DNA of 32,000 nucleotides from Candidatus Saccharimonadota bacterium (GTDB lineage: Archaea; Nanohalarchaeota; Nanosalinia; Nanosalinales; Nanosalinaceae), in contig NZ_CP107255.1 of NCBI RefSeq assembly GCF_029232205.1, forward strand, positions 930,001-962,000, written 5' to 3'. Each line of letters begins with the position of its first letter. Within the stretch, counting starts at the first letter, position 1. Shown here piece after piece: positions 4,207 through 29,778 of this stretch. Made by a program: the position numbers and the translations under genes. A model generated the notes under the pieces. The model was not told where the DNA came from and made no database searches. It saw nothing but the letters and a program-made list of their open reading frames with translations.

Positions 4207-4216
4207 TTAATAAATT
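4207..4216. promoter_or_regulatory. shared bidirectional TATA-like box (gpmI and the 3714-4184 gene)
   Basis: ttaataaatt is centred 27.5 nt from the gpmI ATG at 4239 and 27.5 nt from the minus-strand ATG at 4184. Confidence 0.45.
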
Positions 4217-4238
4217 CAATCAACGCGAATATTCAGGT

Positions 4239-9431: not shown

Positions 9432-9433
9432 GA

Positions 9434-10323: not shown

Positions 10324-10355
10324 ATGGTTATTTTGTGAGAGCCTGTTAAAATAAT

Positions 10356-10493: not shown

Positions 10494-10502
10494 GTTGTCA
10501 CC

Positions 10503-12116: not shown

Positions 12117-12337
12117 ATGCTACCATCTGTTGCGTCCGCTACTACACTTGAAATTGCCTTCATGTATGGGCTCTGGCAGCTGCTGGTGGTTTCTGCGCCG
12201 AAAAGTGCTGGCAGAAGATATGGCATGACTAAGGCCCCGAAGGCTATTGAGAGGAATAGAGCCATTATTATTCTCATGCTCCAGCCCATTCCTTTGCTTT
12301 TAGCGTAAAAGTTGAGGGTTTTGAGAAAAGTCTTCAT
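12110..12337 (-). CDS. small prepilin-like protein (75 aa)
   Basis: A longer leader, MKTFLKTLNFYAKSKG, is followed by MGWSMRIIMALFLSIAFGALV. The protein has 2 Cys. The gene overlaps the next gene by 7 nt. Confidence 0.65.
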   Translation of the reverse strand: MKTFLKTLNFYAKSKGMGWSMRIIMALFLSIAFGALVMPYLLPALFGAETTSSCQSPYMKAISSVVADATDGSIC

Positions 12338-12360
12338 GTTAGAGAGTTGTGTTCTGTTGT

Positions 12361-12498
12361 TTATAGTAATTTTTCAATAATTCCTGTGACCACGTTGTCG
12401 ATTCCCTGGCTTACTGCTCCGATAATTGCGGCGGCTGCAATCACGGCAACACCCATCAGTACTAGCTCCTGTGTTGAAAACTCTCCTTTTCTCTTCAT
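12361..12498 (-). CDS. 45-aa prepilin (class III signal peptide, helix-only), absent from the supplied ORF track
   Basis: Codon-by-codon hand translation gives MKRKG-EFSTQELVLMGVAVIAAAAIIGAVSQGIDNVVTGIIEKLL. The ATG directly abuts the stop of the platform gene (12498/12499). A GGTGG Shine-Dalgarno-like element sits 8 nt upstream. Confidence 0.7.
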   Translation of the reverse strand: MKRKGEFSTQELVLMGVAVIAAAAIIGAVSQGIDNVVTGIIEKLL

Positions 12499-14670
12499 TT
12501 AGCCTGCCACCTGTGTAACGGATCCTACCATGCCTCCAAATAGCATTCCTACGATTATAAGAGTCATCGTATAGAAGAACATTCCCGAGATCATTATTTT
12601 TCCTATGAAGAGGTTCTTGTATGTAGGATCCTCTCCCTTCTTGATCTTCGTGAAGAAACTTCCCAGTATGTAAAGAAGCTGGATTAGATATACTCCTACT
12701 ACAAACTGCAGTAGCTCTGGAGGAATAGCTGAATCGAAACCAGATATTACTCCCCCAAGGCCTGCTGAGGCTCCCGGCTGGTTTCCGATCTCGGATTCTG
12801 TTACCGATTTTGAAAGAGTTGTCATGGCCGTAATGATTGTCTGAGACATGCCTACTGCAACCCCTGAAACTACTGGTGCCAGCAAGTATGCCAGCATCTG
12901 TATAGTTGTTGTAGTATCTTCCATCAGGTCGTTAAGCTGCTCCTGAGTCTTGTGAATATTCTTCAAGTATTTTGAAATTGTAAGCATTGCTGTAGAGGCC
13001 ATATTGGTTCCTTTTCTGGAGGATTCGATGATGGCCTTCATTACTGTTCTTATCATCTGACTTGGGAACTGTCTCAGTGCGCCGTAACGGTCATCCATTA
13101 TGGATTGTTCAAAGGTCATGCCCATGTCTTTGACGTTTTCTGAGGCCTTTCCAAACAGATTAGATATCTCAAGTTCTGAAGTAGCCTCTGCAGCTTCCTG
13201 TAGTGCAATTTCTACTGGTGTTCCCCCTGAAATCTTGTTTCCTAGTTCGAATAGTGCGTTTGGGAACTGGTCTTCTATTTTGGAGAGGTTTTTTTCAGCT
13301 TCTCTTCGTTCAAGATTTCCAAGCGTTTTTACGGCCCCTATTCCTACTCCGAGGCCGAAAATTATGGACACGCTTCTCATAAGCATCGGTAGTGGATCTA
13401 GTGCTCCTCCAGACTGTAGGTATATTGAGGGAACCTGACTCACGCTGAAGTCTCCTGCAGGGTAGAGAAGTAGTAGGCCTTCTCCAGCTCCTAGTGTAGA
13501 TAGGTATCCTACTACGCCATATGTGGCGAAGAAGAAGAATATTATTATTCCTACAGGCCATACTGGCGCTCTTATTGTCTTTCCTAGTACATCAAAGGTG
13601 TATTTTCCTCTTTCTGGCAGTGTTGAGTCATCTACCGGTTTGGTTGCTACTGTTGGCGGCCTTGAGCTGAGCACTCTTTTCATGAACCAGTAGAGGAATG
13701 TTGGCAGGAGCACGTTGAAGAGTAGGAAAAGGTGCATAGGTGTGATGGCGTCTCCCATGAATACGGAGATAAGCGGGAGCATGATCATACCAAGTACCGG
13801 AAGCATGGCTCCCATCGCGTTCAGGATCATGACAGGAGTCTCCAAGTTCTGCGCATAGTGTTTCATTTTCTCCTGTGTTCCGTCCAGAATGTTGTCGATC
13901 GAGTCCTGAAGCATAGATTCTCTTCTCTGTGGATCAGGCTGATTCATCGCAGAACGAAGAAGATTCAGCGATTCGAGGAAGTCATCGTTGTAGTCCTTCC
14001 ATCTTCTTGTGTAATTTTCAAGCGCACCATCAATCTTGTTGTACTTCCCTATCTCCAGATTCCATAGTACTGATTTCAGATCGTCCGAGATCGGGCCTTC
14101 CAGGTTAAGTGCTGCGAAACGAACTGCTCCCTCCAGATTAGGAGAGCTTCTCATGTATACTACCATGTACAGAATTGCAAGAATCATTTCTCCACTGCTT
14201 TCTATTAACTTGGACTGCGCTGCGTACTTGGGCTTGTAGTATGTATAGGCTCCCGCTATCATCGGAGCAGTCATCATTATCATCATGATCGATATAGGGA
14301 TGAGGCCTCCCAGAACCAGAGTGTTAATCATGAAAAGCATCATCCAGGCCATGAAAGAAAGCAGGAAGACCCCTACTGTTGCAGACATAACCATTCCTGG
14401 CGTTATATCCCATCCAAGAAGATTGATAGGTGGCGTCAGTTTTTTGTGAGTCTGCTCTCCGGCCTTCATGTTAAATACGTTTGCCATTTCATAGCAGAGC
14501 TTCTCATAACTATTTCTCTCCTGTGATCTCTCTTCATCTTCCTTGTAGTCCTTGTAAGAACGCGAATATCCTTGGCCTCCATCTTGATTGTTGTATGGAG
14601 GCATACTTACGTCTCTATCTAGATCATCTAGTATTTCATTTATCTTGTCCTGTTTTTCGTTCTTATCCAA
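12499..14670 (-). CDS. FlaJ/TadC/PilC-family polytopic platform protein of a type IV filament system
   Basis: The 723-aa product has an acidic cytoplasmic N-terminus, then alternating clusters of TM helices and soluble T2SS-F-like helical domains (ILYMVVYMRSSPNLEGAVRFAA..., IALQEAAEATSELEISNLF...). It lies immediately downstream of the secretion ATPase. Confidence 0.88.
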   Translation of the reverse strand: MDKNEKQDKINEILDDLDRDVSMPPYNNQDGGQGYSRSYKDYKEDEERSQERNSYEKLCYEMANVFNMKAGEQTHKKLTPPINLLGWDITPGMVMSATVGVFLLSFMAWMMLFMINTLVLGGLIPISIMMIMMTAPMIAGAYTYYKPKYAAQSKLIESSGEMILAILYMVVYMRSSPNLEGAVRFAALNLEGPISDDLKSVLWNLEIGKYNKIDGALENYTRRWKDYNDDFLESLNLLRSAMNQPDPQRRESMLQDSIDNILDGTQEKMKHYAQNLETPVMILNAMGAMLPVLGMIMLPLISVFMGDAITPMHLFLLFNVLLPTFLYWFMKRVLSSRPPTVATKPVDDSTLPERGKYTFDVLGKTIRAPVWPVGIIIFFFFATYGVVGYLSTLGAGEGLLLLYPAGDFSVSQVPSIYLQSGGALDPLPMLMRSVSIIFGLGVGIGAVKTLGNLERREAEKNLSKIEDQFPNALFELGNKISGGTPVEIALQEAAEATSELEISNLFGKASENVKDMGMTFEQSIMDDRYGALRQFPSQMIRTVMKAIIESSRKGTNMASTAMLTISKYLKNIHKTQEQLNDLMEDTTTTIQMLAYLLAPVVSGVAVGMSQTIITAMTTLSKSVTESEIGNQPGASAGLGGVISGFDSAIPPELLQFVVGVYLIQLLYILGSFFTKIKKGEDPTYKNLFIGKIMISGMFFYTMTLIIVGMLFGGMVGSVTQVAG

Positions 14671-14673
14671 GCA

Positions 14674-16935
14674 TTACACCTGCTGTTGCAGCCATTCATC
14701 CCATCTTGCAAATATCCTATCATTATCTAGATCCCCGTATTCTTCTCTAACGCGCTGTGAAAGTATGTGATAGCGCTGATTGGCTTTTACAACAAAGTCG
14801 GCCTCCAGAAGTTGTTTATCGCTTTCCTGATTGGCCTCTACAAGTCTCTCCTTTATCTGCTGTCTTAGCTTGATATTGTCCCAGACCGCTTCCCAGTCGT
14901 TCTTCCATTCCTTGATATTTTCAGCGATCCTGTTCAGAATCAGTGACTCGCCGTTCATCAGTTCATCGGTGGGAACTAGCTCATCTTTATTGCTGTCATA
15001 TCTCATCAGATCGACAAACGCGTTTTCATCTTGAGGATCCTCCTGCCAGTCCTTCCTCACCTCGGTAATGCCAGTAACCCTACGGTATGTGTCCATACCG
15101 TCGGGACTTCTGATCTTATTCACACTGACAATAATGTCTGTAGCCTTGAAAGAAGTTCTTGGAACATTAAGATCGTTTACAACACGGTCAAAAACAGAGT
15201 ATGCATCTTCGCCGTGAATCGTACCTCCTACGAAGTTTGCAACAGCTCCAACACGCATGGCCTCGTAAAGAGCCTTTGCCTCATCAGAACGGACCTCTCC
15301 AACAACAAGAGCAGAGTCTCCTAGCCGTAGTGAGGTTCTAATTGCCTCATCCGCTGCCATCTCATTCTCAACCTGCGTAATAGCAGATCTGGACTTCATA
15401 CGCTCGACATTGTAACCTAGATCCTTCATCTGAGGAATAGGCAGCTCAAGCGTATCCTCAACAGTCACAATCCTGTGACTCTTCATAATCTCAAGCATAG
15501 AGGCCCCAAGAATCGAGGACTTACCAGCGCCACGAGTACCTGCAAACAGAACCGAGCGATTCCCGTCAACAAGGAAGGATATCAGGGCCGCGCCAAGAGA
15601 GTTTATCATACCATTATTCATGAAAAGAGGTAGTGTCCAAGCCTTTGAACGGTGTCTTCTGAACGCGAACGCAAGGCCTTCTGGCGAAAGATTTTCCTGT
15701 ATAACTGCTACACGGGCTCGGCCTCCAGGAACCTCAGCCTCAGTATCCAGTACCGGATTGGCCTCGTCAAGAGGTCTTCCTGATCTGATTCTGAATCTTG
15801 TGGCCCATGACTCTGCCTCGTCCTTTGTAGGTATTAAGTTTGTCTCACATTCCCCGTACTCCTGATGGGAGATATACATCGGAGAATCTCCTATCGGAGA
15901 GTTAATGTAGACGTCCTGGATTTTTGGATCAGCTAATAGAAGCTCCAAGACACCAAGGCCTGAAGTATACCGGTTAAGAATTGAACCTAGCTCTTCTAGC
16001 TCTTCTAGAGATAAATCAACACCCATCTGATTTGCTATATCTCTGAGCATGTCCTTCCCGATATTCTGGAATACCTCATTCATTCTCTCAGGCCTGGCAA
16101 ATTCTCCTTCTTCAGGTTGGTGAGAGGCCATGTATCTTCTTGCTGCATCCAGCAATGTGTATTTCTGCTCTGACAGATTGAATTCCGGAGGATTGACATG
16201 GTATACAGGCCTTGTCTGATCGGGCACCCTATATATAGAAACTTCTATGTTGTCTCTGACCTTGTACCGGTCTACTTCCTCTCCTCTTTCTGGAGGAAGA
16301 CTCATGTACTTTGTAAGCATGAAGTTAGGCCTTACAAGAGGGTGGAAGAACTCTCTGTAGATTTCTCGGTCTCCTACATGGTGGCCTGTAAGATACTGTT
16401 GTGCATCCTGTATTAGCTGGCATTCCTCTATTCTGTCAATTACAGGATTGAGAACATCTTGTATAAAGTATTTCAGACATCTCTGCTGCTCAGGATATGC
16501 ATTTTGCCTGTCCTGATTTAGATGTCTTTTCTTACGAGTAAGCTGGACATAGGCCCCGATAGGATCTTTTCTCATCTGGTCGAAAACACTTTCCTGTACG
16601 TCAGGAAGATGCTGACTGTATACTGTATCGCATTTATCTGTCTTTACGTTCTGAGAAAGGTGGCCCTGCGAGGATATATCCTGTATTACCTGTGAGATTT
16701 CTCTAAGGTATTTTACCTGTTGTTCATCGTATTCGTAGTCTCTCGACTCGGATAGAACTACCGATGATGCATCAGGAACTTCCTGCAAGATGTTTATTAC
16801 TCGGGACATGACCTGAGGATAGTCCTCGAGGCTTGCACCGTAGATTGAGCCCAGCGTGTTTACCTCTACAGTGCCTGATTCTTCATCATAGTCGTATTCG
16901 AAAACATCTTTGTCTGTTACAGTCATACCCAGCAT
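14674..16935 (-). CDS. type II/IV secretion-family ATPase (FlaI/GspE/VirB11-like), 753 aa
   Basis: Motifs are Walker A FAGTRGAGKSS, Walker B-like ALVVGEVR, the Asp-box region VTVEDTLEL, and the His-box GGTIHGE. Long N- and C-terminal extensions flank the core. Confidence 0.92.
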   Translation of the reverse strand: MLGMTVTDKDVFEYDYDEESGTVEVNTLGSIYGASLEDYPQVMSRVINILQEVPDASSVVLSESRDYEYDEQQVKYLREISQVIQDISSQGHLSQNVKTDKCDTVYSQHLPDVQESVFDQMRKDPIGAYVQLTRKKRHLNQDRQNAYPEQQRCLKYFIQDVLNPVIDRIEECQLIQDAQQYLTGHHVGDREIYREFFHPLVRPNFMLTKYMSLPPERGEEVDRYKVRDNIEVSIYRVPDQTRPVYHVNPPEFNLSEQKYTLLDAARRYMASHQPEEGEFARPERMNEVFQNIGKDMLRDIANQMGVDLSLEELEELGSILNRYTSGLGVLELLLADPKIQDVYINSPIGDSPMYISHQEYGECETNLIPTKDEAESWATRFRIRSGRPLDEANPVLDTEAEVPGGRARVAVIQENLSPEGLAFAFRRHRSKAWTLPLFMNNGMINSLGAALISFLVDGNRSVLFAGTRGAGKSSILGASMLEIMKSHRIVTVEDTLELPIPQMKDLGYNVERMKSRSAITQVENEMAADEAIRTSLRLGDSALVVGEVRSDEAKALYEAMRVGAVANFVGGTIHGEDAYSVFDRVVNDLNVPRTSFKATDIIVSVNKIRSPDGMDTYRRVTGITEVRKDWQEDPQDENAFVDLMRYDSNKDELVPTDELMNGESLILNRIAENIKEWKNDWEAVWDNIKLRQQIKERLVEANQESDKQLLEADFVVKANQRYHILSQRVREEYGDLDNDRIFARWDEWLQQQV

Positions 16936-16966
16936 TATTATTGGCGCGTTTCTAAAATAAAAGTGA
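16936..16966. promoter_or_regulatory. 31-bp divergent intergenic region with crossed A/T boxes
   Basis: taaaataaaa (16952-16961) lies about 21 nt from the minus ATG at 16935. attattatt (16934-16942) lies about 29 nt from the plus ATG at 16967. Confidence 0.35.
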
Positions 16967-17398
16967 ATGCCTCAGCAAGACATTGTAAATCAGTTAGTAG
17001 ATAGGGTCAACGACTTTAACAGAAGGATCCGTGATCTGGAGGAGAAAGTTAGGAACATCAACGCCCGCGTCAACACTCTTGACGACAGCCTGCTTAAGAA
17101 GACCAAGTCTTTGAGCAGCGATGTTCAGGATATCAACGATGATATGAGCGAGATTAGAGATAGGATAGCCAATCTTGAGGTAGATATTAAGGAGATTAAT
17201 AGAGAGAAACGTAAATTTGTAACTTCTCAGGAAATAGAGGAGATTGAGAACTACATGGATTTAATGAATCCAATCAACTCCTCTTTCATGACTGAGAAGG
17301 AGGTTAAATCTCTTCTCAAGAAGCAGGAGACTGATGGAGGCCTGAGTAGGAAAGAGGTAGAGCAAATCGTAGAGAAAAAGCTCCGCGACCAGGATTAA
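16967..17398 (+). CDS. coiled-coil protein (143 aa), function unknown
   Basis: A clean ORF transcribed divergently from the ATPase. It shows heptad-like repeats (RIRDLEEKVRNINARVNTLDD ... RIANLEVDIKEINRE). Confidence 0.75.
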   Translation: MPQQDIVNQLVDRVNDFNRRIRDLEEKVRNINARVNTLDDSLLKKTKSLSSDVQDINDDMSEIRDRIANLEVDIKEINREKRKFVTSQEIEEIENYMDLMNPINSSFMTEKEVKSLLKKQETDGGLSRKEVEQIVEKKLRDQD

Positions 17399-17442
17399 TT
17401 GTTTATAAACCAGAAGGCGTATTATATTTGTAGGCGAGCCGT

Positions 17443-18372
17443 ATGGAATTCAAATTATTCGATAGACTAAAAGATGAAGATGGACAGTCCGACTCCAACT
17501 CCGGTAACGGAGGTATGGGAGGAGGCTTTGGCGGCTCAAATTCCGGTAATTCTCAGGCAAGTTCTTTTGGAGGTAATGGAGTAGAGAGAAGAGTTTCAGA
17601 CATGTTTAATCAGGGCTACTCTGAGAAAGAGATCAAGGACGAACTTCAGGGCCAGTTTTCTCAGACAGAAATTGAGAGAGCAATCAATAATGCAGTGAAA
17701 AGCTCTGCAACTGGAAATAATAGTAGTAGCGGGTCCAGTGGTGGGCCTCAGCCGATGACACCGTATAAAAGCGATAGCGGTGAGGAAGCGATAAGCCCTA
17801 TGGACGAAGGTTTCGATGGTGGAGATGATAATCAGATGAATCAGGATAACGGTCAACAGCAAGGTATGCAGCAGAATCAAGGTTTTAACCAGCAAAATAA
17901 TACTCAACAACAGCAGCAGGTACAGCAGCCTCAACAGCAACAGCAGGGAGGCCAGCAAGTTAATCCTTCTCAGGGTTCTGTTAATCCCGAGATTGAGGAG
18001 TTGATTGAAACAATTGTTTCAGAAAACTTCCAGATGGTTGAACAGAGATTTGACGACATATTTGAGGAAATCGATATTCTTGCAGACAAGGTAGATGAAC
18101 TGGAAGACCGAGTTGAGGAACTGGAGATCAGAGATGATGAGGATCAGGAACAGTTCCTCCAGAAAGTAGATGAGGTAGAGGACCACATCGATTCCTATGA
18201 GTCAAGGATTGGAGGTCTGGAGAAGGCCTTCCAGCAGGTCTTGCCATCGCTTGTTGACAATGTCCGCGATCTCACAAGTCTTGTCCAGGAGATTAAACAG
18301 GAGAGAGGTATTGAGACAGATACCAACGTCTCTCAACAAGACATGGATAAAATGGACATTGACAACTGGTAA
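17443..18372 (+). CDS. G/S/N-rich plus Q-rich low-complexity protein with an acidic C-terminal coiled coil, function unknown
   Basis: The 309-aa product has a G/S/N-rich N-terminus and a short helical motif FNQGYSEKEIKDELQGQFSQTEIERAINNA. A Q/N tract covers aa 129-177, followed by a coiled coil (KVDELEDRVEELE ...). Confidence 0.8.
   Translation: MEFKLFDRLKDEDGQSDSNSGNGGMGGGFGGSNSGNSQASSFGGNGVERRVSDMFNQGYSEKEIKDELQGQFSQTEIERAINNAVKSSATGNNSSSGSSGGPQPMTPYKSDSGEEAISPMDEGFDGGDDNQMNQDNGQQQGMQQNQGFNQQNNTQQQQQVQQPQQQQQGGQQVNPSQGSVNPEIEELIETIVSENFQMVEQRFDDIFEEIDILADKVDELEDRVEELEIRDDEDQEQFLQKVDEVEDHIDSYESRIGGLEKAFQQVLPSLVDNVRDLTSLVQEIKQERGIETDTNVSQQDMDKMDIDNW
17827..17973 (+). repeat. Q/N-rich low-complexity coding tract
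   Basis: It encodes DNQMNQDNGQQQGMQQNQGFNQQNNTQQQQQVQQPQQQQQGGQQ using mixed CAA/CAG codons. Confidence 0.85.
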
Positions 18373-18418
18373 AGGCCTATTATCATATTTCTTCTTTAAT
18401 TCAATCAGTAACTAGAAA

Positions 18419-18919
18419 TTAGAAGTCCTGTGTTGTAAACAGGACAATTATTATGACAAATATCAGCGACAGTATTGGCATTATCACTTCATCAAACAGA
18501 TTCTGGCCTTCTCCAATCAGTGATGCTGCGCCACCGCCGTAACCTACCAGGATGCTGACGAATGCTACAATACCGATCACTCCTGCAAATATCCATGGTA
18601 GCGACCAGGCATCGCCCATTTCATTTACATCGTAGCCTGCTACTGCGAACAGTATAAGTAGGGACAGCAAGCCGAATATTCCGAATGCTATTGCTGATGC
18701 AAAGTGTGTCCACATTCCTGCTGGTGCAAAAGCGGTGACACCAATAACGGAAAGGAAAGCAAATGAGAGTGCGACTACTCCGTTGACCTGTGTCTCTTCG
18801 CTGATTACTTCGTATTTATTGAGCAGGCCGTAACTGACCGAGAATATGAGGAGCCAGGGTAGGAATAGGTTGAATCCCATTTCCTGCATTGTCAGTATGA
18901 CTTGCTCAATTGCTCCCAT
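18419..18919 (-). CDS. polytopic membrane protein (166 aa), paralog of 18927-19496
   Basis: The product has 4-5 hydrophobic segments. It shares an N-terminal pattern with its neighbour (FNLFLPWLLIFSVSYGLL / FFTLLLPFLVTYVVLLFG and VVALSFAF / VVALAGAF). Confidence 0.8.
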   Translation of the reverse strand: MGAIEQVILTMQEMGFNLFLPWLLIFSVSYGLLNKYEVISEETQVNGVVALSFAFLSVIGVTAFAPAGMWTHFASAIAFGIFGLLSLLILFAVAGYDVNEMGDAWSLPWIFAGVIGIVAFVSILVGYGGGAASLIGEGQNLFDEVIMPILSLIFVIIIVLFTTQDF

Positions 18920-18926
18920 TATTCAG

Positions 18927-19496
18927 TCACCCATCTTCTCCAAGCAGTGTTTCCATTGCTGACATTACAGAGGAGTCATCATCTCCGCTACTACTGTCAT
19001 CGGAAGGTCTTGTCCAGTACATCACAATTCCTAGCGGAACCAACCATACTAATGGCGAGGACAGGGCCTCATTCACCATGCTGCTGACAGTGGTATCCGG
19101 TAGTGGAACTATCGCTTCCAAGCCTCCTGTTCGGGCAAATACTATTACTCCTGCGAACAGCACCACTATCGCTATTGGCTTGGATTTCTGAAGTACGTCT
19201 CCCCATCCTGCAATTCCAAGTATTGCACCCAGGCCGATAACACCCATCATACCGATGGCTATTCTGGCCCAGTACTCTGTGAAGAATGACTGGTATCCTG
19301 GATTGTTCGCTAGGAAGAATGCCAGGAAGAATGCTCCTGCTAGTGCAACGACAGGAGGCACGTTTGAATCATCTAAGTGCCCTATCTGTCTTACTCCGAA
19401 AAGTAGTACTACATAAGTTACCAGAAATGGAAGTAGGAGTGTGAAAAAGTCCACTCCTTCAAGAGTTGTAATTAAGGAAGCAAATCCTGTGGCCAC
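18927..19496 (-). CDS. polytopic membrane protein (189 aa) with an acidic S/D tail, paralog of 18419-18919
   Basis: Multiple hydrophobic segments are followed by the C-terminal tail PSDDSSSGDDDSSVMSAMETLLGEDG. A 7-nt gap separates it from the downstream gene. Confidence 0.8.
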   Translation of the reverse strand: MATGFASLITTLEGVDFFTLLLPFLVTYVVLLFGVRQIGHLDDSNVPPVVALAGAFFLAFFLANNPGYQSFFTEYWARIAIGMMGVIGLGAILGIAGWGDVLQKSKPIAIVVLFAGVIVFARTGGLEAIVPLPDTTVSSMVNEALSSPLVWLVPLGIVMYWTRPSDDSSSGDDDSSVMSAMETLLGEDG

Positions 19497-19500
19497 TCAA

Positions 19501-19761
19501 TTATTCACCTTCTTGTTCTCGAAGATATTCTTCGATGTTGTGGTTGAGCATCCATAGCTCTCTTCCTATGATCATCAGGCCCAGCATGATTATCCATGGA
19601 GAGATAATGTCTCCAAAGGAGCTCATTGTCAGGCCCTGTGTTCTCTGAAGAGTCCATACTGCTACTACTATGGCTCCAAATGATAGAAACGCTATCAGTA
19701 GTTCGTCTAGAATGTTTTCGATTTCGTATACAAATTCGTGGAATTTAGTATCTCGATTCAT
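19501..19761 (-). CDS. small two-TM membrane protein (86 aa)
   Basis: Two hydrophobic segments are present (LLIAFLSFGAIVVAVWTL and ISPWIIMLGLMII). Gaps to both neighbours are 3-4 nt. Confidence 0.7.
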   Translation of the reverse strand: MNRDTKFHEFVYEIENILDELLIAFLSFGAIVVAVWTLQRTQGLTMSSFGDIISPWIIMLGLMIIGRELWMLNHNIEEYLREQEGE

Positions 19762-19764
19762 CGT

Positions 19765-19902
19765 TTACCAGTTGCCTCCTCCGCTTCTCTTTTTGTTTCT
19801 TTTCATGAATAGACGTGTCAAGAATCCTGCTACGAAGCCTACCGCCGCTACTTCCGGATAGGCCATCAAATTATTCATTACCGCTTCTGCTGTCAGAGCC
19901 AT
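19765..19902 (-). CDS. 45-aa single-TM peptide with a basic tail, absent from the supplied ORF track
   Basis: My hand translation is MALTAEAVMNNLMAYPEVAAVGFVAGFLTRLFMKRNKKRSGGGNW. GAGGT (19913-19917) sits upstream. It is the first gene of a 4-gene string. Confidence 0.5.
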   Translation of the reverse strand: MALTAEAVMNNLMAYPEVAAVGFVAGFLTRLFMKRNKKRSGGGNW

Positions 19903-19940
19903 TTGTTTTTGAACCTCTTAGGAATACCTTTTGAAGCTTT

Positions 19941-19951
19941 GTTTAAATATC
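19941..19951 (-). promoter_or_regulatory. TATA-like box for the 19902-18419 membrane-protein operon
   Basis: gatatttaaac (minus-strand reading) lies about 44 nt upstream of the ATG at 19902. That spacing leaves a short leader containing GAGGT. Confidence 0.4.
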
Positions 19952-20005
19952 TAAAGCCGTTTGTTGCAATTCTCAAACGCTGAAGACACGCAAAACGCTT
20001 ATGCT

Positions 20006-20015
20006 AAAGAAAAAA
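20006..20015 (-). terminator. oligo-T tract downstream of the 20032-20571 gene
   Basis: The minus strand reads cccttttttcttt, 17-26 nt after the stop codon. Archaeal termination typically uses T-tracts. Confidence 0.35.
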
Positions 20016-20031
20016 GGGATAGGAGGTGGAG

Positions 20032-20571
20032 CTATAGGTTCTTGTGAACGTGGGTTTCCACTTTGTCCATGGATCCTTTCATCTGGTTGAGGTACCTTCC
20101 CTCGATTGTCTTCAGAATCTGGTCCATTTCTGACTCTTTGTTCATCTCTTTTTCTTCCCATTCCATTTCCTGCTCGACTTCCTGTCTTGCCTGATCAATC
20201 TTTTCGTGGACATCCTGTAGAACCTGGTGTTGTCTCTTAACGTATTCAGGATCTCTTAGCCAGCCAAGCGCTTCTTCATCTGGAACATTTTGCTGTAGGT
20301 ACTGGTTTGCAGCTGCTATTCCCTGATTATTGAGAATCTGCTCAAACTGTTCAAAGTTAATCTTGTTAATAACGGCTACAAACTGCAGTAGACCCGATTG
20401 CTCGGCCTCCTGCATCGCTTCTTTCAGCTTGTTGATTACATCATCATCGAGCTCGATCTCTCTTTTTCTGAGCTCTTCATCTTGATGTATATCATCCATT
20501 ACCTCCTGTACTCTATCATGTAGTTCTTGAAAATCAAAACTCTCATTTTCTGAGAAGTAGTCGTCTGCCAT
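20032..20571 (-). CDS. acidic soluble protein (179 aa), stand-alone copy of the C-terminal module of the 746-aa neighbour
   Basis: Its sequence LKEAMQEAEQSGLLQFVAVINKINFEQFEQILNNQGIAAANQYL...WLRDPEYVKRQHQ...MEWEEKEM aligns colinearly with ELKEAMQVIEQSQLLKFVAAINKIDFDRFDQILNEEGIATANQYL...WLSNPEFIKSQHK...MEWEDGEM. Confidence 0.82.
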   Translation of the reverse strand: MADDYFSENESFDFQELHDRVQEVMDDIHQDEELRKREIELDDDVINKLKEAMQEAEQSGLLQFVAVINKINFEQFEQILNNQGIAAANQYLQQNVPDEEALGWLRDPEYVKRQHQVLQDVHEKIDQARQEVEQEMEWEEKEMNKESEMDQILKTIEGRYLNQMKGSMDKVETHVHKNL

Positions 20572-20608
20572 GGTCAGTTATAGGTCATCTACATTAAAAA
20601 AACTTGTC

Positions 20609-22849
20609 TCAGCGGCTGGTGTCAATCATAGTATCCTCTAACCTCCCCATCGCCGATCTTATTTGAGGCAGTTTCTGATTCTCCAAACTGTCAAGAACAT
20701 CAAGAATCTGGGCCTCCTGCTCCATTTCACCATCCTCCCACTCCATGTTCTGCTCTAAATCCTGCCTTGCCTCATCTAAACGATTGTGCAGCTTCTCCAG
20801 CTGCTTGTGCTGGCTCTTGATAAACTCTGGATTGGAGAGCCAATCCTTAATTTCCGGATCACTTAATTTGCTGTCAAGATACTGGTTTGCAGTAGCAATA
20901 CCTTCTTCGTTAAGAATCTGATCAAATCTATCAAAGTCTATCTTGTTAATAGCTGCTACAAACTTTAGTAATTGGCTCTGCTCGATTACCTGCATGGCCT
21001 CCTTAAGTTCCTCTAATATTTGTTCATCTACACTTAACTCTTGCTTTCTGGTCTGCTCATCCTTTTCTAGAGCTTCAATTAGATTGCCAAATGTAGTCTC
21101 AATTTCTGCGTCGTGCTGATATTCCTGACCTGCATTATGCCTCATGTGGCTCTTATCCAACGTCCAGTTCCGCTCCAAAATATCAATTATTGCACGGAAA
21201 TCTGTCTCATCTATTCTCCTTGCATCGTGCTCCTTGAAGTAGTCAACAATTTCCTGCGATGCATCTACAATCGAATCTCTTGGAACTGACTGAATATGAT
21301 TGTAGAAGGCCATAAGCATTGAACCATTGTTTCCTACAGCTCTTTGATGATCTCCATTCAGAGTTCTAAGAAGCATCTCCTTGGCAGAATCTCTTAGATC
21401 TGAATTTCTAACGACCTTCTGGAATATCTCCCAGTTATCTCCTTCTAGATCAGGTTCATCTGAACCTCCGCCACCCTGCTCTACGTTCACTATAATATTT
21501 GTTATCTGTACAAGAGCGTCCTGATTTAGAGGACCCTGGAAGCTCAAAAACACGCTTACTATTTCTTCTACTGCAGGCCCAACCGCTGAGGAAGGGAGAT
21601 TTTCAATAACAGAGATTAACTGTACAAATACAGAAACATCAATCTGAACATTACTGCCAGTTTGAATTACCACTGTGCCATCATTTACTTCGATGTTAAG
21701 CTCTAGAAGATTGATGAACTGTGAGAAGGCCTGCTGGTTAACATTCACATTATTTTGCTGGACGTACTGGCCTAACTGATTTACAAGAACGTTTGATATA
21801 TCGTAATACTGCTGATTAACAACTTTTTCGATCTCTACATTGTTGATCTGGACAATTTTTGGATTATTCTCAACTTTCTGGAAGTACTGCTCTAGCCTCT
21901 GAATCAGGGTTTCATCTAGAGGCCCTCCATAATTGACCACTATCTTCATCATCTGATTGACTACCTCCATATCAAATTCTTCATCCCCTTCAGACATGAC
22001 CTTGACCATCATCTGCATCAAGCCACTAAATTGCTGCTGCTGAATGGTTACATCCTCGGCATTAGGCGCATTCACAACTATTCCTCCATTACCTGGACCG
22101 AATCTTCCCTGTAGTAAGGCCATGAACTGCATCATACCCGGAGTCATTGCCATACCCATCTGCTGCTGTTGCTGCTGCATTGCAGCTGCTACTTGCTGAG
22201 CCATCTGTGGATCTAGATCGATGTCAACATTCTGATAAGGTGAGCCAGGAGGGCCTCCACCAGAATCCCCAGAGTCATCGCTGCTATCGCTTCCATCAGG
22301 GACATTAACATCTATAGAATCAGGCGCGTTGACATCTATAGAATCTGGAGCATTAACATCTATAGAATCAGGAATATCACCACCACCTATATCAATATCT
22401 GGAAGGCCTGGAAGATTGACTCCAAGAAGATGTCTTAGTACGAAGAGCAGGGCCAGTAATAACAGTAGTAGGGCGACTCCTGGCCCGTAGTTTCCGTGCC
22501 TCATTACTGTTACTACTGCTACTGCTAGGGCCATTAGCTGTGCTGCTTTCTGCCCCATCTCGGATAGATCATCGCCGCCGTTATTGTCCTCGAAGTTGTT
22601 TTCAGCTCTCTTCAGAACTTTGCTGAATATGAACCACATTAGGCCATATACTCCGATTAAAGGTATGATTACGAATACGAGGAAGTCCTGGCCATTGTTG
22701 ATGTCGCTGACTGTTAGAGAATCAATGAAGTTTAGTGGTTCATTGTAGAATGCCTGTGAGGGGCCTCCTCCAGCGATCTGTGCAGCAGCTGGTGCGGAAA
22801 TAACAGCTATGAGTAAAAGTAGAAGTGCTGCTGCATACGATTTGCGCAT
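20609..22849 (-). CDS. 746-aa modular membrane protein, function unknown
   Basis: The order of parts is a signal peptide (MRKSYAAALLLLLIAVISAPAAAQ), TM helices, a DSIDVNAP x3 repeat, a QQQQQQ tract, an N/Q/V-rich middle region and an acidic C-terminal module. Confidence 0.85.
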   Translation of the reverse strand: MRKSYAAALLLLLIAVISAPAAAQIAGGGPSQAFYNEPLNFIDSLTVSDINNGQDFLVFVIIPLIGVYGLMWFIFSKVLKRAENNFEDNNGGDDLSEMGQKAAQLMALAVAVVTVMRHGNYGPGVALLLLLLALLFVLRHLLGVNLPGLPDIDIGGGDIPDSIDVNAPDSIDVNAPDSIDVNVPDGSDSSDDSGDSGGGPPGSPYQNVDIDLDPQMAQQVAAAMQQQQQQMGMAMTPGMMQFMALLQGRFGPGNGGIVVNAPNAEDVTIQQQQFSGLMQMMVKVMSEGDEEFDMEVVNQMMKIVVNYGGPLDETLIQRLEQYFQKVENNPKIVQINNVEIEKVVNQQYYDISNVLVNQLGQYVQQNNVNVNQQAFSQFINLLELNIEVNDGTVVIQTGSNVQIDVSVFVQLISVIENLPSSAVGPAVEEIVSVFLSFQGPLNQDALVQITNIIVNVEQGGGGSDEPDLEGDNWEIFQKVVRNSDLRDSAKEMLLRTLNGDHQRAVGNNGSMLMAFYNHIQSVPRDSIVDASQEIVDYFKEHDARRIDETDFRAIIDILERNWTLDKSHMRHNAGQEYQHDAEIETTFGNLIEALEKDEQTRKQELSVDEQILEELKEAMQVIEQSQLLKFVAAINKIDFDRFDQILNEEGIATANQYLDSKLSDPEIKDWLSNPEFIKSQHKQLEKLHNRLDEARQDLEQNMEWEDGEMEQEAQILDVLDSLENQKLPQIRSAMGRLEDTMIDTSR
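22297..22373 (-). repeat. in-frame 24-bp tandem repeat, 3 copies (PDSIDVNA)
   Basis: The core acatctatagaatc recurs at 22308, 22332 and 22356 with exact 24-nt spacing. Copies differ only at a few positions. Confidence 0.9.
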
Positions 22850-22893
22850 AGACTAATTTGAGTTTAGCTTCTTTAATAGCATTAGGGCCGTAA

Positions 22894-23313
22894 TTACATC
22901 ATTTTGTAGATTACGTAGATGAATGCACAGGCGAATGCGACTAATATTGCAGGCCCCATTACTTCTATTAGCTGAGAGATTCTTCTCCACATCGGGGAGA
23001 CTATAATCATTGCAGGTATAGATACCGCGAGAATGGTTGAGTAGCGGCCTATCTCAGAATCTGTCATGTCATCGTTGGAGTTCAATGCAAACTTCATCAG
23101 GTTGAAGAGAGTGAACTGCATGATTGCATAGATTAGAACAAATGGAAAAATTATCTTCAGCACCAGCTCTCTCTGAGAGTCATACTCTGGAGCCGAAAAG
23201 TAATCGGCACCATCGTAGTCGTTCAGGTCATAGGCCTGCGAAGTAGCTGCCCCAGTTGATATTACCAGAAGCAATAGAACTGAAAGAATTTTTCTAGAAG
23301 TCAAAATCATCAT
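22894..23313 (-). CDS. small membrane protein (~139 aa), stand-alone copy of the N-terminal module of the 746-aa neighbour
   Basis: The start is set at MMILTSRKILSVLLLLVISTGAATSQA (signal-peptide-like). The segment IIFPFVLIYAIMQFTLFNLMKFALNSNDDMTDSEIG parallels IIPLIGVYGLMWFIFSKVLKRAENN..GGDDLSEMG in 20609-22849. Confidence 0.7.
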   Translation of the reverse strand: MMILTSRKILSVLLLLVISTGAATSQAYDLNDYDGADYFSAPEYDSQRELVLKIIFPFVLIYAIMQFTLFNLMKFALNSNDDMTDSEIGRYSTILAVSIPAMIIVSPMWRRISQLIEVMGPAILVAFACAFIYVIYKMM

Positions 23314-23602
23314 CGCCGCCTCCGCCGAAGTCGTCGTCTCCTCCACCGAAGTCACCGCCACCGCTACCTCCACCACCAGAGGAGCTAGAGCCTTCTCTAA
23401 TTTTCTGAATATAAACCGGAATCATTTCATCAACCAGAAACCCTACCGCAAGGCCCATTCCCGCAAGAAGAGCTATCTGAGCGTTCAATTCTGTTAGACC
23501 CGTCATTGAGGTAACATCATCAAGAAGAATGTTGACGGCAAAGTATGATGCTATTGCTGAGGCCGGGAAGGCCGGATACTTCCACGGGTCTTTAATGTTC
23601 AT
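23294..23602 (-). CDS. small membrane protein (102 aa) with a G/D/F-rich C-terminal tail
   Basis: Two hydrophobic segments are followed by SSSSGGGGSGGGDFGGGDDDFGGGGDDDFDF. The 3' end overlaps the next gene by 20 nt in another frame. Confidence 0.7.
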   Translation of the reverse strand: MNIKDPWKYPAFPASAIASYFAVNILLDDVTSMTGLTELNAQIALLAGMGLAVGFLVDEMIPVYIQKIREGSSSSGGGGSGGGDFGGGDDDFGGGGDDDFDF

Positions 23603-23623
23603 AGAGAAAACTGGCTTCTACTT

Positions 23624-23630
23624 GTTTAAA
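23624..23630 (-). promoter_or_regulatory. TATA-like box for the 23602-20032 gene string (leaderless-type spacing)
   Basis: tttaaac (minus-strand reading) is centred about 25 nt upstream of the ATG at 23602. Confidence 0.4.
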
Positions 23631-23634
23631 TCAG

Positions 23635-23865
23635 TTAATCAAATTTTCCAAGTCTTTCAAGAGTCTCGAGAATACCCCATGCATAGATTACAGATTCCCA
23701 GGCCCTGATATAGTCCTCTTCATCAAGGAAATGCTGTGTGTCATCTCGGTAGGCCTCAACATTCTCCATCTGCTCGACACTTGAATCTCTGTCTTCAACC
23801 CTATCTTCCAGCTTTTTCAGCCACTTCTCTGTCTCTTCCTTCAGTTTTTCCTGTGTCTCGTCCAT
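23635..23865 (-). CDS. DUF357-like small helical protein (76 aa)
   Basis: MDETQEKLKEETEKWLKKL...AYRDDTQHFLDEEDYIRAWESVIYAWGILETLERLG matches my recollection of the DUF357 pattern (Y.DA..F...GD...A.....YA.GWLD...RLG). aattataaaag is centred 27 nt upstream of this ATG. The longer track ORF to 24066 is rejected. Confidence 0.65.
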   Translation of the reverse strand: MDETQEKLKEETEKWLKKLEDRVEDRDSSVEQMENVEAYRDDTQHFLDEEDYIRAWESVIYAWGILETLERLGKFD

Positions 23866-23941
23866 GCTGAGAACTTGTACAGTGATAATTATAAAAGAGT
23901 TATTTCTTTTTACTATCAATAGGTAACAAGAGGTATTATTT

Positions 23942-24679
23942 ATGACAGCATTCGGACTACTTCCAGGGCCTTTGGACGGCGTTAAATTGACCGTTGACAG
24001 GCTCATGGAAGACGGTGAAGAAGAGATAGAGACCATTGACCTTTCTGGCCTCGAAGGATTCGACATTGATGAATACAGACAGCGAGATGACGTAGAGGTA
24101 GAAAGAACTATTAGAGACGATGGCAGAGAAGCTTACAGAGTAGTGCCTCATTCCGAAGAGGCAAGAGCGCTTTTGGACCCATCTAACTATAGTGAGGAAT
24201 CGGATTCAGAGATTTCGGAACCCTCTTCAGATCTTGGACCTCAAAACCCTTCAGAACCTAATAACGGAGGTGACAATAATATGGTAGATAGTCCAGACGA
24301 GCTAGTAGACCTATCTGACGACGTAGATGCAGCACAGCAGGACATGTACGACAAGCTTGGCGGATTCAGAGATTATCTGGAAGAGAAATTCCAGGAAGTA
24401 GACGATGAGATCGAAGTAACTCTAAGAGAAGCTGCTGAAGTACTCGACTACATGGACGACACAATGGGCGCACAGCTCAACACACAGCTTCACGACTACG
24501 AGACAGTTAGCGATTACGTCGAAGCAGTTAGTTCTGACGTAGACGAACACGTCGACGAAGTAGTTGCACATCTTGACGAAGACTTTAGAGACACCGATAA
24601 GTACGCAGAAGTCAGGAGAAACATGGAAGCAATGGATCAGAGAAGAAACCGCTTCAGAGACGAAATGGGTCTTAATTAA
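23942..24679 (+). CDS. acidic protein (245 aa), function unknown; C-terminal helical domain paralogous to the N-terminus of 24742-25743
   Basis: GAGGT sits 7 nt upstream of the ATG. Blocks shared with the next gene are LVD..S....A.AQ.DMYD.L and DY.TV.D..E. Confidence 0.75.
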   Translation: MTAFGLLPGPLDGVKLTVDRLMEDGEEEIETIDLSGLEGFDIDEYRQRDDVEVERTIRDDGREAYRVVPHSEEARALLDPSNYSEESDSEISEPSSDLGPQNPSEPNNGGDNNMVDSPDELVDLSDDVDAAQQDMYDKLGGFRDYLEEKFQEVDDEIEVTLREAAEVLDYMDDTMGAQLNTQLHDYETVSDYVEAVSSDVDEHVDEVVAHLDEDFRDTDKYAEVRRNMEAMDQRRNRFRDEMGLN

Positions 24680-24685
24680 GACCCC

Positions 24686-24695
24686 TTTTTTCTTT
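24686..24695 (+). terminator. oligo-T tract after the 23942-24679 gene
   Basis: cccc-tttttt-c-ttt begins 7 nt after the TAA stop. Confidence 0.35.
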
Positions 24696-24741
24696 CAACC
24701 AAAACCCTTTTAACTTTCTTTGTTATTAAACAGTAACAACA

Positions 24742-25743
24742 ATGAGTGCGAATGGATTTGACCTGGTAGATAGAAGCAGTAGAACTGCTGAAGCGCAGGA
24801 TGATATGTATGATGCGCTGGAAGATCTTGGTAATACTCTAGACAGAGGTCATGATCTCCTTGATGACGTAGTTGAAGGTCAGAGAGAGACCGAAGAGACA
24901 TTTGCACAATTTCTAGAAGAAGTAAGAAACGATTACAGAACAGTTGAAGATTTTGCAGAACAGTATAACGATAGACAGCAGGATCTGAATAGTAGAATCG
25001 AAAACCTCGATGTAGGAAATAATAACACAACATTTAACCTATACGCCTTCCCAGGCGCCACGACGACTCAGCCTATGGGATGGGGCAGCATGTACCAACA
25101 GCAAGGCCTATTTGGTCAGCAACAAGGTTTCGGACCTGGCAGTTTTTGGAGTCCTAACCAGCAACAACAGCAGGCATCTGGAGGAGGTCAACAACAGCAA
25201 CAGCAAGGGTATGGCGGCCAGCAGCAACAACAGCAACAAGGATTTGGAAGACAGCAACAGCAGCAGGGCCAGACCTGGGATCAGGTTTTCTTTGGATCAG
25301 ATGATGAGAGTATTCTGGATGTAAACGATACTACAGAAGATGAAAGTGAAGAAATTCCAGTAGACTCTCCGGAAGATAATACCTACGAAGAGCCAGAAGA
25401 CGAATCTTACGACGAACCCGGGGATGAGAGTTATGAAGCTACTGACAGCGAACCAGTTACATTCATTGATGGAACAGAAGATCCTGTAGAAGACACCTAC
25501 GAAGAGCCAGAAGACGACGAGACCTATGACGACACTGAAGACTATGAACCAGAGCCAGATGGAAGTGTAGATATGGGAACAAACTTTGGGCCAGACATCA
25601 GTTTCGACTACGAAGCTGAAAACTCCACAGAAAATGCAACTCAAAGCTTCAGCTTTTCAGGTACAGGCTTCGAGCCATCCGGCAGCATTACAATGCAGCA
25701 ATCAGCTGGCGGGGAAACCCAGTACTTTGAGGCCTCATTCTAA
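24742..25743 (+). CDS. protein with an acidic helical N-domain, a Q/G-rich (GFG/LFG/GYG) tract and a hyper-acidic Y/E/P/D tail, function unknown
   Basis: The 333-aa product has a Q/G tract at aa 110-177 and a tail with duplicated TYEEPED. Its 3' end overlaps the dphB 3' end by 9 nt. Confidence 0.8.
   Translation: MSANGFDLVDRSSRTAEAQDDMYDALEDLGNTLDRGHDLLDDVVEGQRETEETFAQFLEEVRNDYRTVEDFAEQYNDRQQDLNSRIENLDVGNNNTTFNLYAFPGATTTQPMGWGSMYQQQGLFGQQQGFGPGSFWSPNQQQQQASGGGQQQQQQGYGGQQQQQQQGFGRQQQQQGQTWDQVFFGSDDESILDVNDTTEDESEEIPVDSPEDNTYEEPEDESYDEPGDESYEATDSEPVTFIDGTEDPVEDTYEEPEDDETYDDTEDYEPEPDGSVDMGTNFGPDISFDYEAENSTENATQSFSFSGTGFEPSGSITMQQSAGGETQYFEASF
25069..25272 (+). repeat. Q/G-rich low-complexity coding tract
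   Basis: It encodes QPMGWGSMYQQQGLFGQQQGFGPGSFWSPNQQQQQASGGGQQQQQQGYGGQQQQQQQGFGRQQQQQGQ. Confidence 0.85.
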
Positions 25744-27537: not shown

Positions 27538-28182
27538 ATGAGTATAGGAGATAGAATTGGAAATTGGGTCGATAGACAGGTCGACGATGCAAGAGACATT
27601 TTTAGTTTCAGCTATGAAAATCTTAGAGGAAATACCCCTCCAAGCCCGGGAAGACGACAGTTCCTGAAGGCTACCGGAGCAGCAGCTACTGGCGGAGGCG
27701 TAGTAGGTTACGGCGTTTCCGAGTATCTAGAAGGAGGCGATACAGGCCAGAGCCCTCAGGATGATGGACAGTCCGGCGGACAGTCTGGAGACGGAAGCGG
27801 AGGCGGTAGTAACGGAGGTTCTACAGGCGGCAGTTCTGGAGGCCAGTCAGGAAGTAGTAACGGAGGTTCTTCAGGAAATGGTTCTGGCAGCGATGTTGAG
27901 TCAATCAACCAGATTCTTGGAGACAACGGCGATACAGATATTGAGACCGTGATAGACTGGTATGGCGAAGGCCATGATAGAGGTTATAGTGCCGACGATA
28001 TTGCTTCAGCATACAACTCAGATCAGGATGAGTATGAGCTAGCTTTCTACGATGGTAGCGATGGAGAACTACCTCTGGTTCTTACAGAAGATCAAGGATT
28101 CAGCGATTCCGAAGTGAACAAAATTCTTGAGTATGAGAATGAAGGTAAGCTTGCGGAGTCATTCAGAAAGATGGAGAATTAA
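27538..28182 (+). CDS. acidic protein with an RR motif plus weakly hydrophobic segment and a G/S-rich linker (Tat substrate or membrane-anchored), function unknown
   Basis: AGGTG sits 5 nt upstream of the ATG. SPGRRQFLKATGAAATGGGVVGYGV at aa 36-60 resembles the twin-arginine consensus S/T-R-R-x-F-L-K. A (G/S/N/Q)-rich tract and an acidic ~95-aa domain follow. Confidence 0.75.
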   Translation: MSIGDRIGNWVDRQVDDARDIFSFSYENLRGNTPPSPGRRQFLKATGAAATGGGVVGYGVSEYLEGGDTGQSPQDDGQSGGQSGDGSGGGSNGGSTGGSSGGQSGSSNGGSSGNGSGSDVESINQILGDNGDTDIETVIDWYGEGHDRGYSADDIASAYNSDQDEYELAFYDGSDGELPLVLTEDQGFSDSEVNKILEYENEGKLAESFRKMEN

Positions 28183-29690: not shown

Positions 29691-29778
29691 ACCTGCTAAG
29701 AAAGCGATTTACTTCTGAATAATAACAACAATATTTAATGATTTGGCACCAATAAGACAACAGGGGGAGAAAGGGCCA

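Follow-up and report, generated by a model that had tools for sequence, protein, structure and literature searches.

This locus raises the question of whether the 13 genes lying between the ATPase of a type IV filament machine and dphB in a DPANN archaeon form a single system and, if they do not, which of them belong with the filament motor. The window, i.e. the whole stretch of 32 000 nucleotides analysed here, comes from Candidatus Nanohalovita haloferacivicina (Nanohaloarchaeota), as one of the proteins concerned (g08 below) has a 100% identical counterpart in this organism; among other genomes, that of Candidatus Nanohaloarchaea archaeon M3_22 (locus L001) comes nearest, with an ATPase that is 94% identical. 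A preliminary description had tentatively read the 9 kb from 16967 to 25743 as one undescribed structural assembly of the cell envelope, linked to a filament motor. We find that this block is probably a composite, made of a conserved motor accessory module (g01–g06), a variable island (g07–g10) and three unrelated genes (g11–g13). The genes concerned, in window coordinates, are the following:

14674–16935, minus strand: T2SSE-type ATPase (Pfam T2SSE, E 6.6e-15)
12499–14670, minus strand: FlaJ/TadC-type platform protein (T2SSF, 25.2 bits, equal to the cut-off)
16967–17398, plus strand: g01, coiled-coil protein CC1, 143 amino acids (aa), core
17443–18372, plus strand: g02, coiled-coil protein CC2, 309 aa, core
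18419–18919, minus strand: g03, protein A with five transmembrane (TM) helices, 166 aa, core
18927–19496, minus strand: g04, five-TM protein B, 189 aa, core
19501–19761, minus strand: g05, small membrane protein, 86 aa
19765–19902, minus strand: g06, basic protein, 45 aa
20032–20571, minus strand: g07, acidic soluble protein, 179 aa, variable island
20609–22849, minus strand: g08, 746 aa, variable island
22894–23313, minus strand: g09 with corrected start, approximately 139 aa (uncorrected open reading frame 22894–23376)
23294–23602, minus strand: g10, 102 aa
23635–23865, minus strand: g11, DUF357 gene with corrected start, 76 aa (uncorrected open reading frame 23635–24066)
23942–24679, plus strand: g12, hyper-acidic ORFan
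24742–25743, plus strand: g13, hyper-acidic Q-rich ORFan

All 13 genes placed between the ATPase start and dphB by the preliminary description were recovered as open reading frames (ORFs), at the same coordinates and on the same strands; dphB itself, followed by a TYW2-type methyltransferase gene, lies on the far side of the block. The remark that only a DUF357-like gene could be assigned to a family also stands: when all 13 proteins were compared with Pfam and NCBIfam, DUF357 alone passed the Pfam threshold, and NCBIfam added nothing above its own. The soluble proteins of the block are acidic throughout (isoelectric point, pI, 4.0–4.9). To place these genes in a wider context, two samples of loci were used. 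The first, based on the ATPase, comprises 38 loci, each with up to 10 kb of flanking sequence, on which the window proteins were located by tblastn and iterated profile search. The second comprises the genomic contexts of six members of the five-TM family, five of them informative (L039, L040/L041, L043, L044 and L045). Pairwise paralogy within the block was scored by BLASTP.

The strongest signal comes from gene order. Of the 38 loci fetched with the ATPase, 25 are informative and have a single platform gene; in 23 of these, two to four five-TM genes are followed by CC2 and CC1 on the opposite strand, and then by the ATPase and the platform gene, oriented like the five-TM genes. The 23 include metagenome-assembled genomes (MAGs) labelled as Aenigmatarchaeota (L018, L029 and L033), at only 24–37% identity. 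CC1 orthologues adjoin the ATPase in 24 of the 38 loci. Starting instead from distant five-TM members leads to the same picture: the order five-TM/CC2/CC1 recurs in 5/5 informative contexts, including one Pacearchaeota genome, with flanking genes that are otherwise unrelated from one context to the next. A T2SSE ATPase follows CC1 in four of these contexts, the contig of the fifth (L044) ending inside CC1. On a rough neighbour-joining tree of the ATPases, most of the clade has the core module, which was lost in two nested sublineages. The genomic association of g01–g04, joined by g05–g06 within Nanohaloarchaeota, with the ATPase/platform pair is solid. Co-occurrence with this pair across DPANN genomes had been put forward as a check on the original proposal; it is seen for g01–g04, and for g05–g06 in Nanohaloarchaeota, and it does not extend to the 13 genes as a single system.

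A second type of locus was met in Nanohaloarchaeota-labelled MAGs (L021–L026, L032 and L037). It carries a related ATPase (approx. 51% identity) and no coiled-coil or five-TM genes, and platform genes stand on both sides of the ATPase wherever the contig reaches both sides.

Could the 13 genes nevertheless constitute one envelope-associated structural system working with the filament motor? Several observations are favourable to this idea. From DUF357 to g03, nine genes lie close together on one strand, several proteins of the block have a membrane-helix motif in common, and domain-less proteins form an island at the same position in every Nanohaloarchaeal relative. Conservation within the 9 kb is, however, sharply layered. 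No homologue of g07 was found in any fetched locus, L001 included, and g12 and g13 have counterparts in L001 only, where they are barely recognisable (43% and 38% identity, versus 94% for the ATPase). Homologues of g08 number only four among 5.8e9 proteins, the identical one included; among the fetched loci they are confined to the nearest relatives, with a mosaic likeness to L001. In the non-halophilic DPANN loci L039, L040 and L043, only the coiled-coil and five-TM core is kept, and the other neighbours differ. The 13-gene view is thus largely refuted by synteny, and we consider it very unlikely; what survives of the proposed structural, motor-linked assembly is its ATPase-proximal part.

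The sequences of g10–g09–g08–g07 (23602–20032) indicate a fast-evolving island, generated by local duplication and shuffling. These four genes had been described as a string built from shuffled copies of the same modules, and they are indeed co-directional, with g07 clearly paralogous to residues 582–738 of g08 (44% identity over 157 aa, E 1.7e-43); by contrast, the resemblance between the g08 N-terminus and g09 is marginal (E 9e-4). The C-terminal 157 aa of g08, equivalent to g07, are missing from L001. The protein combines a signal peptide and three TM helices with a long, probably cytoplasmic, low-complexity and helical region, and a 24-bp tandem repeat in its gene (22295–22373, 3.3 copies, 83% matches) yields DSIDVNAP repeats just past the last TM helix. 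One candidate assignment for g07, TIGR02530 (‘flagellar biosynthesis protein’), was dismissed at 23 bits against a cut-off of 83.

The GTG start of g09 is over-extended, the long GTG-initiated ORF reading through the G/D-rich tail of g10 in another frame. The ATG at 23313 is the most likely start; it provides g09 with a signal-peptide-like N-terminus and leaves a 20-nt overlap (23294–23313) between the end of g10 and the start of g09. Beyond this N-terminus, a crude hydropathy scan detects two further TM segments in g09, which is conserved in approximately 10 Nanohaloarchaeal loci; g10, with one TM helix ahead of its tail, has an orthologue in seven loci. A first-helix motif (‘xPFxL’ or ‘xP(F/W)(L/I)’) is common to g09, g08 and the five-TM family, and hhalign aligns g09 with that family at 75% probability (E 2.5e-5) over only 25 columns. 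A common origin of the g09/g08 N-terminus and the five-TM family was considered on this basis and set aside as suggestive and insufficient, a single 25-column helix being involved. Equivalent islands elsewhere likewise encode proteins without Pfam domains, with the exception of a RimK-like ATP-grasp protein upstream of g06 (L028:5914–7035). The products of g07–g10 may be lineage-specific peripheral partners of the machine, to which they are linked by position only.

As for the last three genes, g11 matches Pfam DUF357 (PF04010) with an E of 1.3e-10 and 41.6 bits, for a cut-off of 29.4. Its corrected product begins with MDETQEKL at 23865, so that it does not overlap g12. The corresponding cluster, arCOG01224, is near-universal, 463 of 524 archaeal genomes having a member (PMC6393860); g11 is a housekeeping gene outside the pilus module. 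It occupies the same anchor position in L009, L010, L028, L030, L038 and L045 and marks the edge of the island. L045 (GCA_053998655.1, 1–14528) is especially informative, with a macro-synteny running TYW2–dphB–DUF357, then, further on, five-TM–CC–ATPase–platform–Alba. Since dphB directly adjoins DUF357 there, g12 and g13 represent a lineage-specific insertion and are not linked to the pilus module. The description of these two genes as a paralogous acidic pair (23942–25743) is right as to acidity; their paralogy is marginal (E 0.013). Tracts rich in Q, N and G within acidic proteins had also been reported, and are real: both g13 and g02 contain a 40-aa window with 34 such residues.

We turn now to the members of the core, beginning with the five-TM proteins. 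Direct comparison of g03 and g04 by BLASTP is marginal (E 0.007), but profiles seeded from either one recover the same 53–54 ORFs, at two to four per locus, which confirms their paralogy at the family level. An exhaustive profile search extends the family to 2590 cluster representatives at E ≤ 1e-3 and 1121 at E ≤ 1e-10. Among the matches listed, most are approximately 160–200 aa long (range 124–226), and all named members, one of them from Pacearchaeota, are called ‘hypothetical protein’. The AlphaFold2 model of g03 is all-helical, with an N-terminal amphipathic helix followed by five TM helices (predicted local distance difference test score, pLDDT, 73.7), and the C-terminal tail of g04 is acidic and Ser-rich.

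No match to the family was obtained in Pfam, in NCBIfam, among PDB sequences or by Foldseek against PDB structures. Weak DUF2070 matches in 7 of 36 members (best E 5e-4) are a lead only. Peptidase_A24, the family of the prepilin peptidases, was not matched either, and the alignment contains no conserved Asp. Derivation from the T2SSF platform (FlaJ/TadC) was also tried and rejected, hhalign giving a probability of 0.3% against a platform alignment. Across the five-TM alignment one Pro is nearly invariant, whereas no acidic, charged or catalytic residue is conserved; together with the lack of Pfam, NCBIfam and PDB matches, this argues for a structural rather than a catalytic or enzymatic role. 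Within the literature text that was searched, the family appears to be unannotated and undescribed, and so does its linkage to a motor locus.

Both five-TM genes belong to the four-gene membrane operon g06–g05–g04–g03 (19902–18419) recognized in the preliminary description, whose tight packing is confirmed by gaps of 3–7 nt. The first gene, g06, encodes a basic protein (pI 10.4), hydrophobic in its central part, and has an orthologue in 11 loci. The orthologue of g05 is found at the same position in 12 loci, all in Nanohaloarchaeota, and a matching string of genes for 45, 84, 213 and 148 aa is carried by L044.

The other half of the core consists of the coiled-coil proteins. In CC1, a coiled coil precedes a conserved C-terminal motif, RKFVT..E..EIE.Y.DL.NP...F.T, and six residues (R20, R22, E25, E92, E94 and P102) are invariant in the alignment. 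CC2 is built of an N-terminal three-helix bundle (approx. aa 45–90), a variable Q/P/G-rich linker, in which the Q/N/G-rich window mentioned above lies, and a conserved C-terminal coiled coil with the consensus EELIETIV...SRIGGLEKAFQQVLPSLV.NVRDL. The N-terminal domain, modelled with AlphaFold2 as a 63-residue fragment, comprises three helices and reaches a pLDDT above 90 over residues 11–40 of the fragment (approx. aa 51–80 of g02); Foldseek found no significant structural relative of it in the PDB (best E 1.6). Neither protein has a TM segment or a signal peptide, and both are predicted to be cytoplasmic.

This prediction bears on a first alternative, namely that CC1 and CC2 are fibrous proteins, exported for attachment, which sit on, or act with, the pilus and bind the host. 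The organism is an obligate ectosymbiont, and the profile matches to reovirus sigma-1 (6GAO) obtained here (E 6.7e-6 for CC2 and 1e-3 for CC1) reproduce an observation published by Hamm et al. (PMC11291902). Nucleoporin p58 was matched as well. These hits lie, however, among 250–370 generic coiled-coil ones (spike HR1, GCN4, keratin and apolipoprotein), and stronger spurious ones arise from reversed sequences; the sigma-1 and nucleoporin likenesses were therefore treated as generic rather than specific. CC1 in particular gives generic coiled-coil matches only, in Pfam and PDB alike. Moreover, no class III signal is present either, and the genes are located on the side of the cytoplasmic motor, divergent from the ATPase, and not among the pilin genes. 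Export of CC1 and CC2 to the cell surface is accordingly quite improbable.

A second alternative would make the locus an archaellum-type rotary machine, with CC2 as a true homologue of the ArlC/D/E (FlaC/D/E) switch complex, which the preliminary description had loosely evoked. The signal behind it does exist: no other Pfam family matches as many CC2 orthologues as FlaC_arch (PF05377; 17 of 20, below or near threshold, best E 6e-6), a precomputed PF05377 match is recorded for 5 of 40 database relatives, and one relative bears the JGI name ‘archaellum component FlaC’. Reva et al. (2023) also called the operon archaellum-like (PMC10266531). Yet the window CC2 scores only 20.6 bits for a cut-off of 27.8. 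When the same 20 sequences were reversed, 13 matched the unrelated plant family Rx_N, with a best E of 6e-9, and the reversed window CC2 exceeded the Rx_N cut-off. As reversed sequences match an unrelated family at least as strongly, the FlaC_arch signal falls within coiled-coil noise and is not evidence of homology. In addition, the ORFs of 6757–25743 gave no Pfam match to FlaD/E, ArlH/KaiC-like proteins, FlaF/G (ArlF/G) or archaellins, and the best phmmer match of the ATPase is a secretion ATPase (2OAP) and not FlaI. We regard a true archaellum as very unlikely here. Two over-readings of the coiled-coil proteins, as viral-attachment-like and as FlaC-like, are thereby corrected, both of which rest on coiled-coil look-alikes.

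Elsewhere in the window are two more coiled-coil ORFs, which encode 577 aa (1911–3644) and 169 aa (3714–4223), both on the minus strand. Their Pfam matches are generic coiled-coil ones, to NPV_P10 and FlaC_arch (E 5e-4).

The motor genes themselves and the region that separates them from CC1 may be described by the following features:

16936–16966, no strand: divergent promoter region between the ATPase and g01, with two conserved AT-rich boxes
6757–12498, minus strand: 11 ORFs downstream of the platform gene, each with one hydrophobic helix at the N-terminus

Among solved structures, the best phmmer match of the ATPase is Archaeoglobus fulgidus GspE2 (2OAP), followed by FlaI and CpaF, and its N-terminal region is unusually long (approx. 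320 aa). Eight of the 11 ORFs of 6757–12498 carry, by inspection, a ‘(R/K/H/S)KG|hydrophobic’ N-terminus with a hydrophobic helix after it and are read as pilin-like from these features. None of the ORFs in this interval matched a Pfam pilin or archaellin model, and no prepilin peptidase of the A24 family is encoded within the window. Pilin cluster and motor module can be separated, since L045 has no pilin genes between the platform gene and Alba.

The orthologous ATPases of six relatives contain an insertion of approximately 500 aa after residue approximately 496, which is not present in the window ATPase. In two of them (L011:4564–8316 and L031:3062–6880), the Pfam matches are those of an intein containing a LAGLIDADG homing endonuclease; in L027, L028, L030 and L033 the insertion was judged by ORF length.

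The two coiled-coil genes had been said to share a 31-bp divergent promoter region with the ATPase. The annotated starts of the ATPase and g01 are indeed 31 bp apart, whereas g02 follows g01 and does not adjoin the ATPase. In the alignment of 13 Nanohaloarchaeal loci, this intergenic region is nearly invariant, as are two AT-rich boxes within it, TTTTATTTTA and AATAATAAT (given in the orientation of the loci, with the ATPase on the plus strand; the window plus strand carries their reverse complements). Each box lies approximately 24–26 nt upstream of the start codon that it faces, and the two would be back-to-back TATA boxes driving leaderless mRNAs. A cross-species alignment places a 1-nt insertion or deletion between the first two ATG codons of the ATPase, so that the second of them (16926) is probably the true start; the divergent intergenic region would therefore measure 40 bp and not 31 bp.

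Outside these regions, the window contains a tRNA-Arg(GCG) gene at 92–163 and, beyond TYW2, two domain-less ORFs of 477 aa (28211–29644, minus strand) and 346 aa (29743–30783, plus strand), together with an ORF of 214 aa whose product weakly matches a TAT signal (27538–28182, plus strand).

How might the conserved module work? Bacterial machines offer a functional analogy, as PilM/N/O and GspL/M, non-enzymatic accessories of membrane and cytoplasm, attach to the N-domain of the ATPase and provide its coupling to the membrane platform. The likeness stops there, the bacterial proteins being bitopic rather than five-TM and sharing no sequence or fold relationship with those described here. A closer parallel is provided by FlaX in Crenarchaeota and ArlC/D/E in Euryarchaeota, which form a coiled-coil cytoplasmic scaffold or switch around a FlaI/FlaJ-type motor (PMC5019145, PMC4307647), and these are most plausibly what the module works like. 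Homology with them is not demonstrable, however; FlaX has its own TM anchor, a role which would here be taken by separate five-TM proteins, and the locus has no FlaH, FlaF or FlaG, unlike those of archaella.

In the composite explanation that we favour, g01–g04, plus g05 and g06 in Nanohaloarchaeota, would be accessory subunits of a DPANN type IV filament machine consisting of the T2SSE ATPase, the FlaJ/TadC platform and the pilin-like gene products. CC1 and CC2 would form a cytoplasmic coiled-coil scaffold, or a regulatory collar, around the ATPase hexamer, for which the N-terminal 320 aa or so of the ATPase are a candidate docking site. The five-TM paralogues, placed beside the platform, would hold this scaffold to the membrane by means of cytoplasmic loops and acidic C-terminal tails. 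The module would thereby play a role similar to that of FlaX or ArlC/D/E in archaella and of PilM/N/O or GspL/M in bacterial machines, and CC1 and the ATPase would be co-regulated from their compact, conserved back-to-back promoter.

A third alternative accepts the gene order and denies its functional meaning: the coiled-coil and five-TM proteins would serve a purpose unrelated to the filament, such as membrane organization or division, and their adjacency to the motor would be inherited gene order. The existence of two ATPase sublineages without these genes is compatible with such a dissociation. But the adjacency is maintained across phylum-level distances while the flanks are replaced, the divergent promoter is compact and conserved, and every one of the five five-TM contexts stands beside CC2/CC1, with the ATPase in the four whose contig reaches it. 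We regard this alternative, too, as very unlikely.

Several points nonetheless weigh against the accessory-module explanation. The core module is absent from the ATPase sublineage L017/L019 and from the double-platform loci (‘platform|ATPase|platform’), upstream of which no core-module gene was detected even at E ≤ 1; it is therefore dispensable for at least some related machines. The five-TM model is only of moderate confidence and matches no solved fold, so that the role given to this family is read from genomic context, and its N-out/C-in topology was assigned by eye from the positive-inside rule in non-halophilic members. Searches with coiled coils are uninformative, values of E from 1e-6 to 1e-9 arising from composition and heptad pattern alone. 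Finally, we infer the scaffold or collar mechanism by analogy with FlaX/ArlCDE and PilMNO/GspLM, and the physical contacts among CC1/CC2, the five-TM proteins and the motor are deduced in the same manner.

These findings may be compared with previous descriptions of such loci. Hamm et al. (2024, Nature Communications) reported two conserved DPANN loci (‘Locus 1’ and ‘Locus 2’), combining CpaF, TadC and coiled-coil proteins such as NAR1_03220 and NAR1_01690 and conserved in Nanohaloarchaeota, Aenigmatarchaeota, Pacearchaeota and others; coiled-coil proteins of equivalent loci were detected in the proteome of Candidatus Nanohaloarchaeum antarcticus, and an attachment-protein-like nature was suggested from their resemblance to viral sigma-1 (PMC11291902). 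The window locus resembles these loci in having an ATPase that adjoins a TadC-type platform, with coiled-coil proteins beside the ATPase, and in the spread of this arrangement across Nanohaloarchaeota and records labelled as Aenigmatarchaeota and Pacearchaeota. As the best PDB look-alikes are identical (sigma-1 6GAO and nucleoporin), g01 and g02 are very probably the coiled-coil proteins of Hamm et al. Two differences emerge: the paralogous five-TM family and its strict linkage are not named in the text of that paper considered here, and the sequences analysed here argue for cytoplasmic rather than attachment-like coiled-coil proteins.

Reva et al. (2023) drew attention to the BNXNv_1067-93 operon of Candidatus Nanohalovita haloferacivicina as archaellum-operon-like, with up to 22 hypothetical proteins (PMC10266531). 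This is the same genome and evidently the same region, in which two annotated filament genes stand among hypothetical proteins. That study made no gene-by-gene dissection, whereas ours distinguishes a conserved core, a variable island and unrelated genes, and detects no component specific to the archaellum. Makarova et al. (2016) described pili of halobacterial subclade 4F with a cytoplasmic coiled-coil protein (arCOG07564), ATPases of the same clade being also found in nanoarchaea and often bearing a variable N-terminal extension (PMC4858521). By this description, subclade 4F has a dedicated intracellular coiled-coil component, as the window module would; unlike in the latter, no five-TM partner is described. 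Weak matches to Pfam DUF5798 and DUF7310, the latter being described as a coiled-coil region, are the only leads towards arCOG07564. The adjective ‘undescribed’ applied to the whole block was consequently too broad, as loci with coiled-coil proteins, ATPase and platform, and the operon itself, had already been reported by Hamm et al. and by Reva et al. The adjective remains apt for the five-TM family. The locus thus belongs to a known kind and contains one component family that is apparently undescribed.

One bolder interpretation would go further. The five-TM proteins and CC1/CC2 could constitute a DPANN-specific class of type IV filament motor accessory not recognized before, comprising a hetero-oligomeric membrane ring and a cytoplasmic coiled-coil collar, with no counterpart in archaella or in the pili of bacteria or archaea. 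We hold this to be doubtful, though less so than the three alternatives and the 13-gene system discussed above. If this is true, the ring could connect the pilus machine with a narrow site of membrane contact or cytoplasmic bridging where symbiont and host carry out their exchanges.

To our knowledge, all cultivated DPANN archaea are host-attached, and pilus-like loci are the leading genomic candidates for their contact with the host. With the block resolved into its layers, the experimental targets are narrowed to four to six of the thirteen genes, and they include a large unannotated family of membrane proteins. This five-TM family (approx. 170 aa, five TM helices and a conserved LP motif) is a candidate for an entry in domain databases and for use as a marker of the machine.

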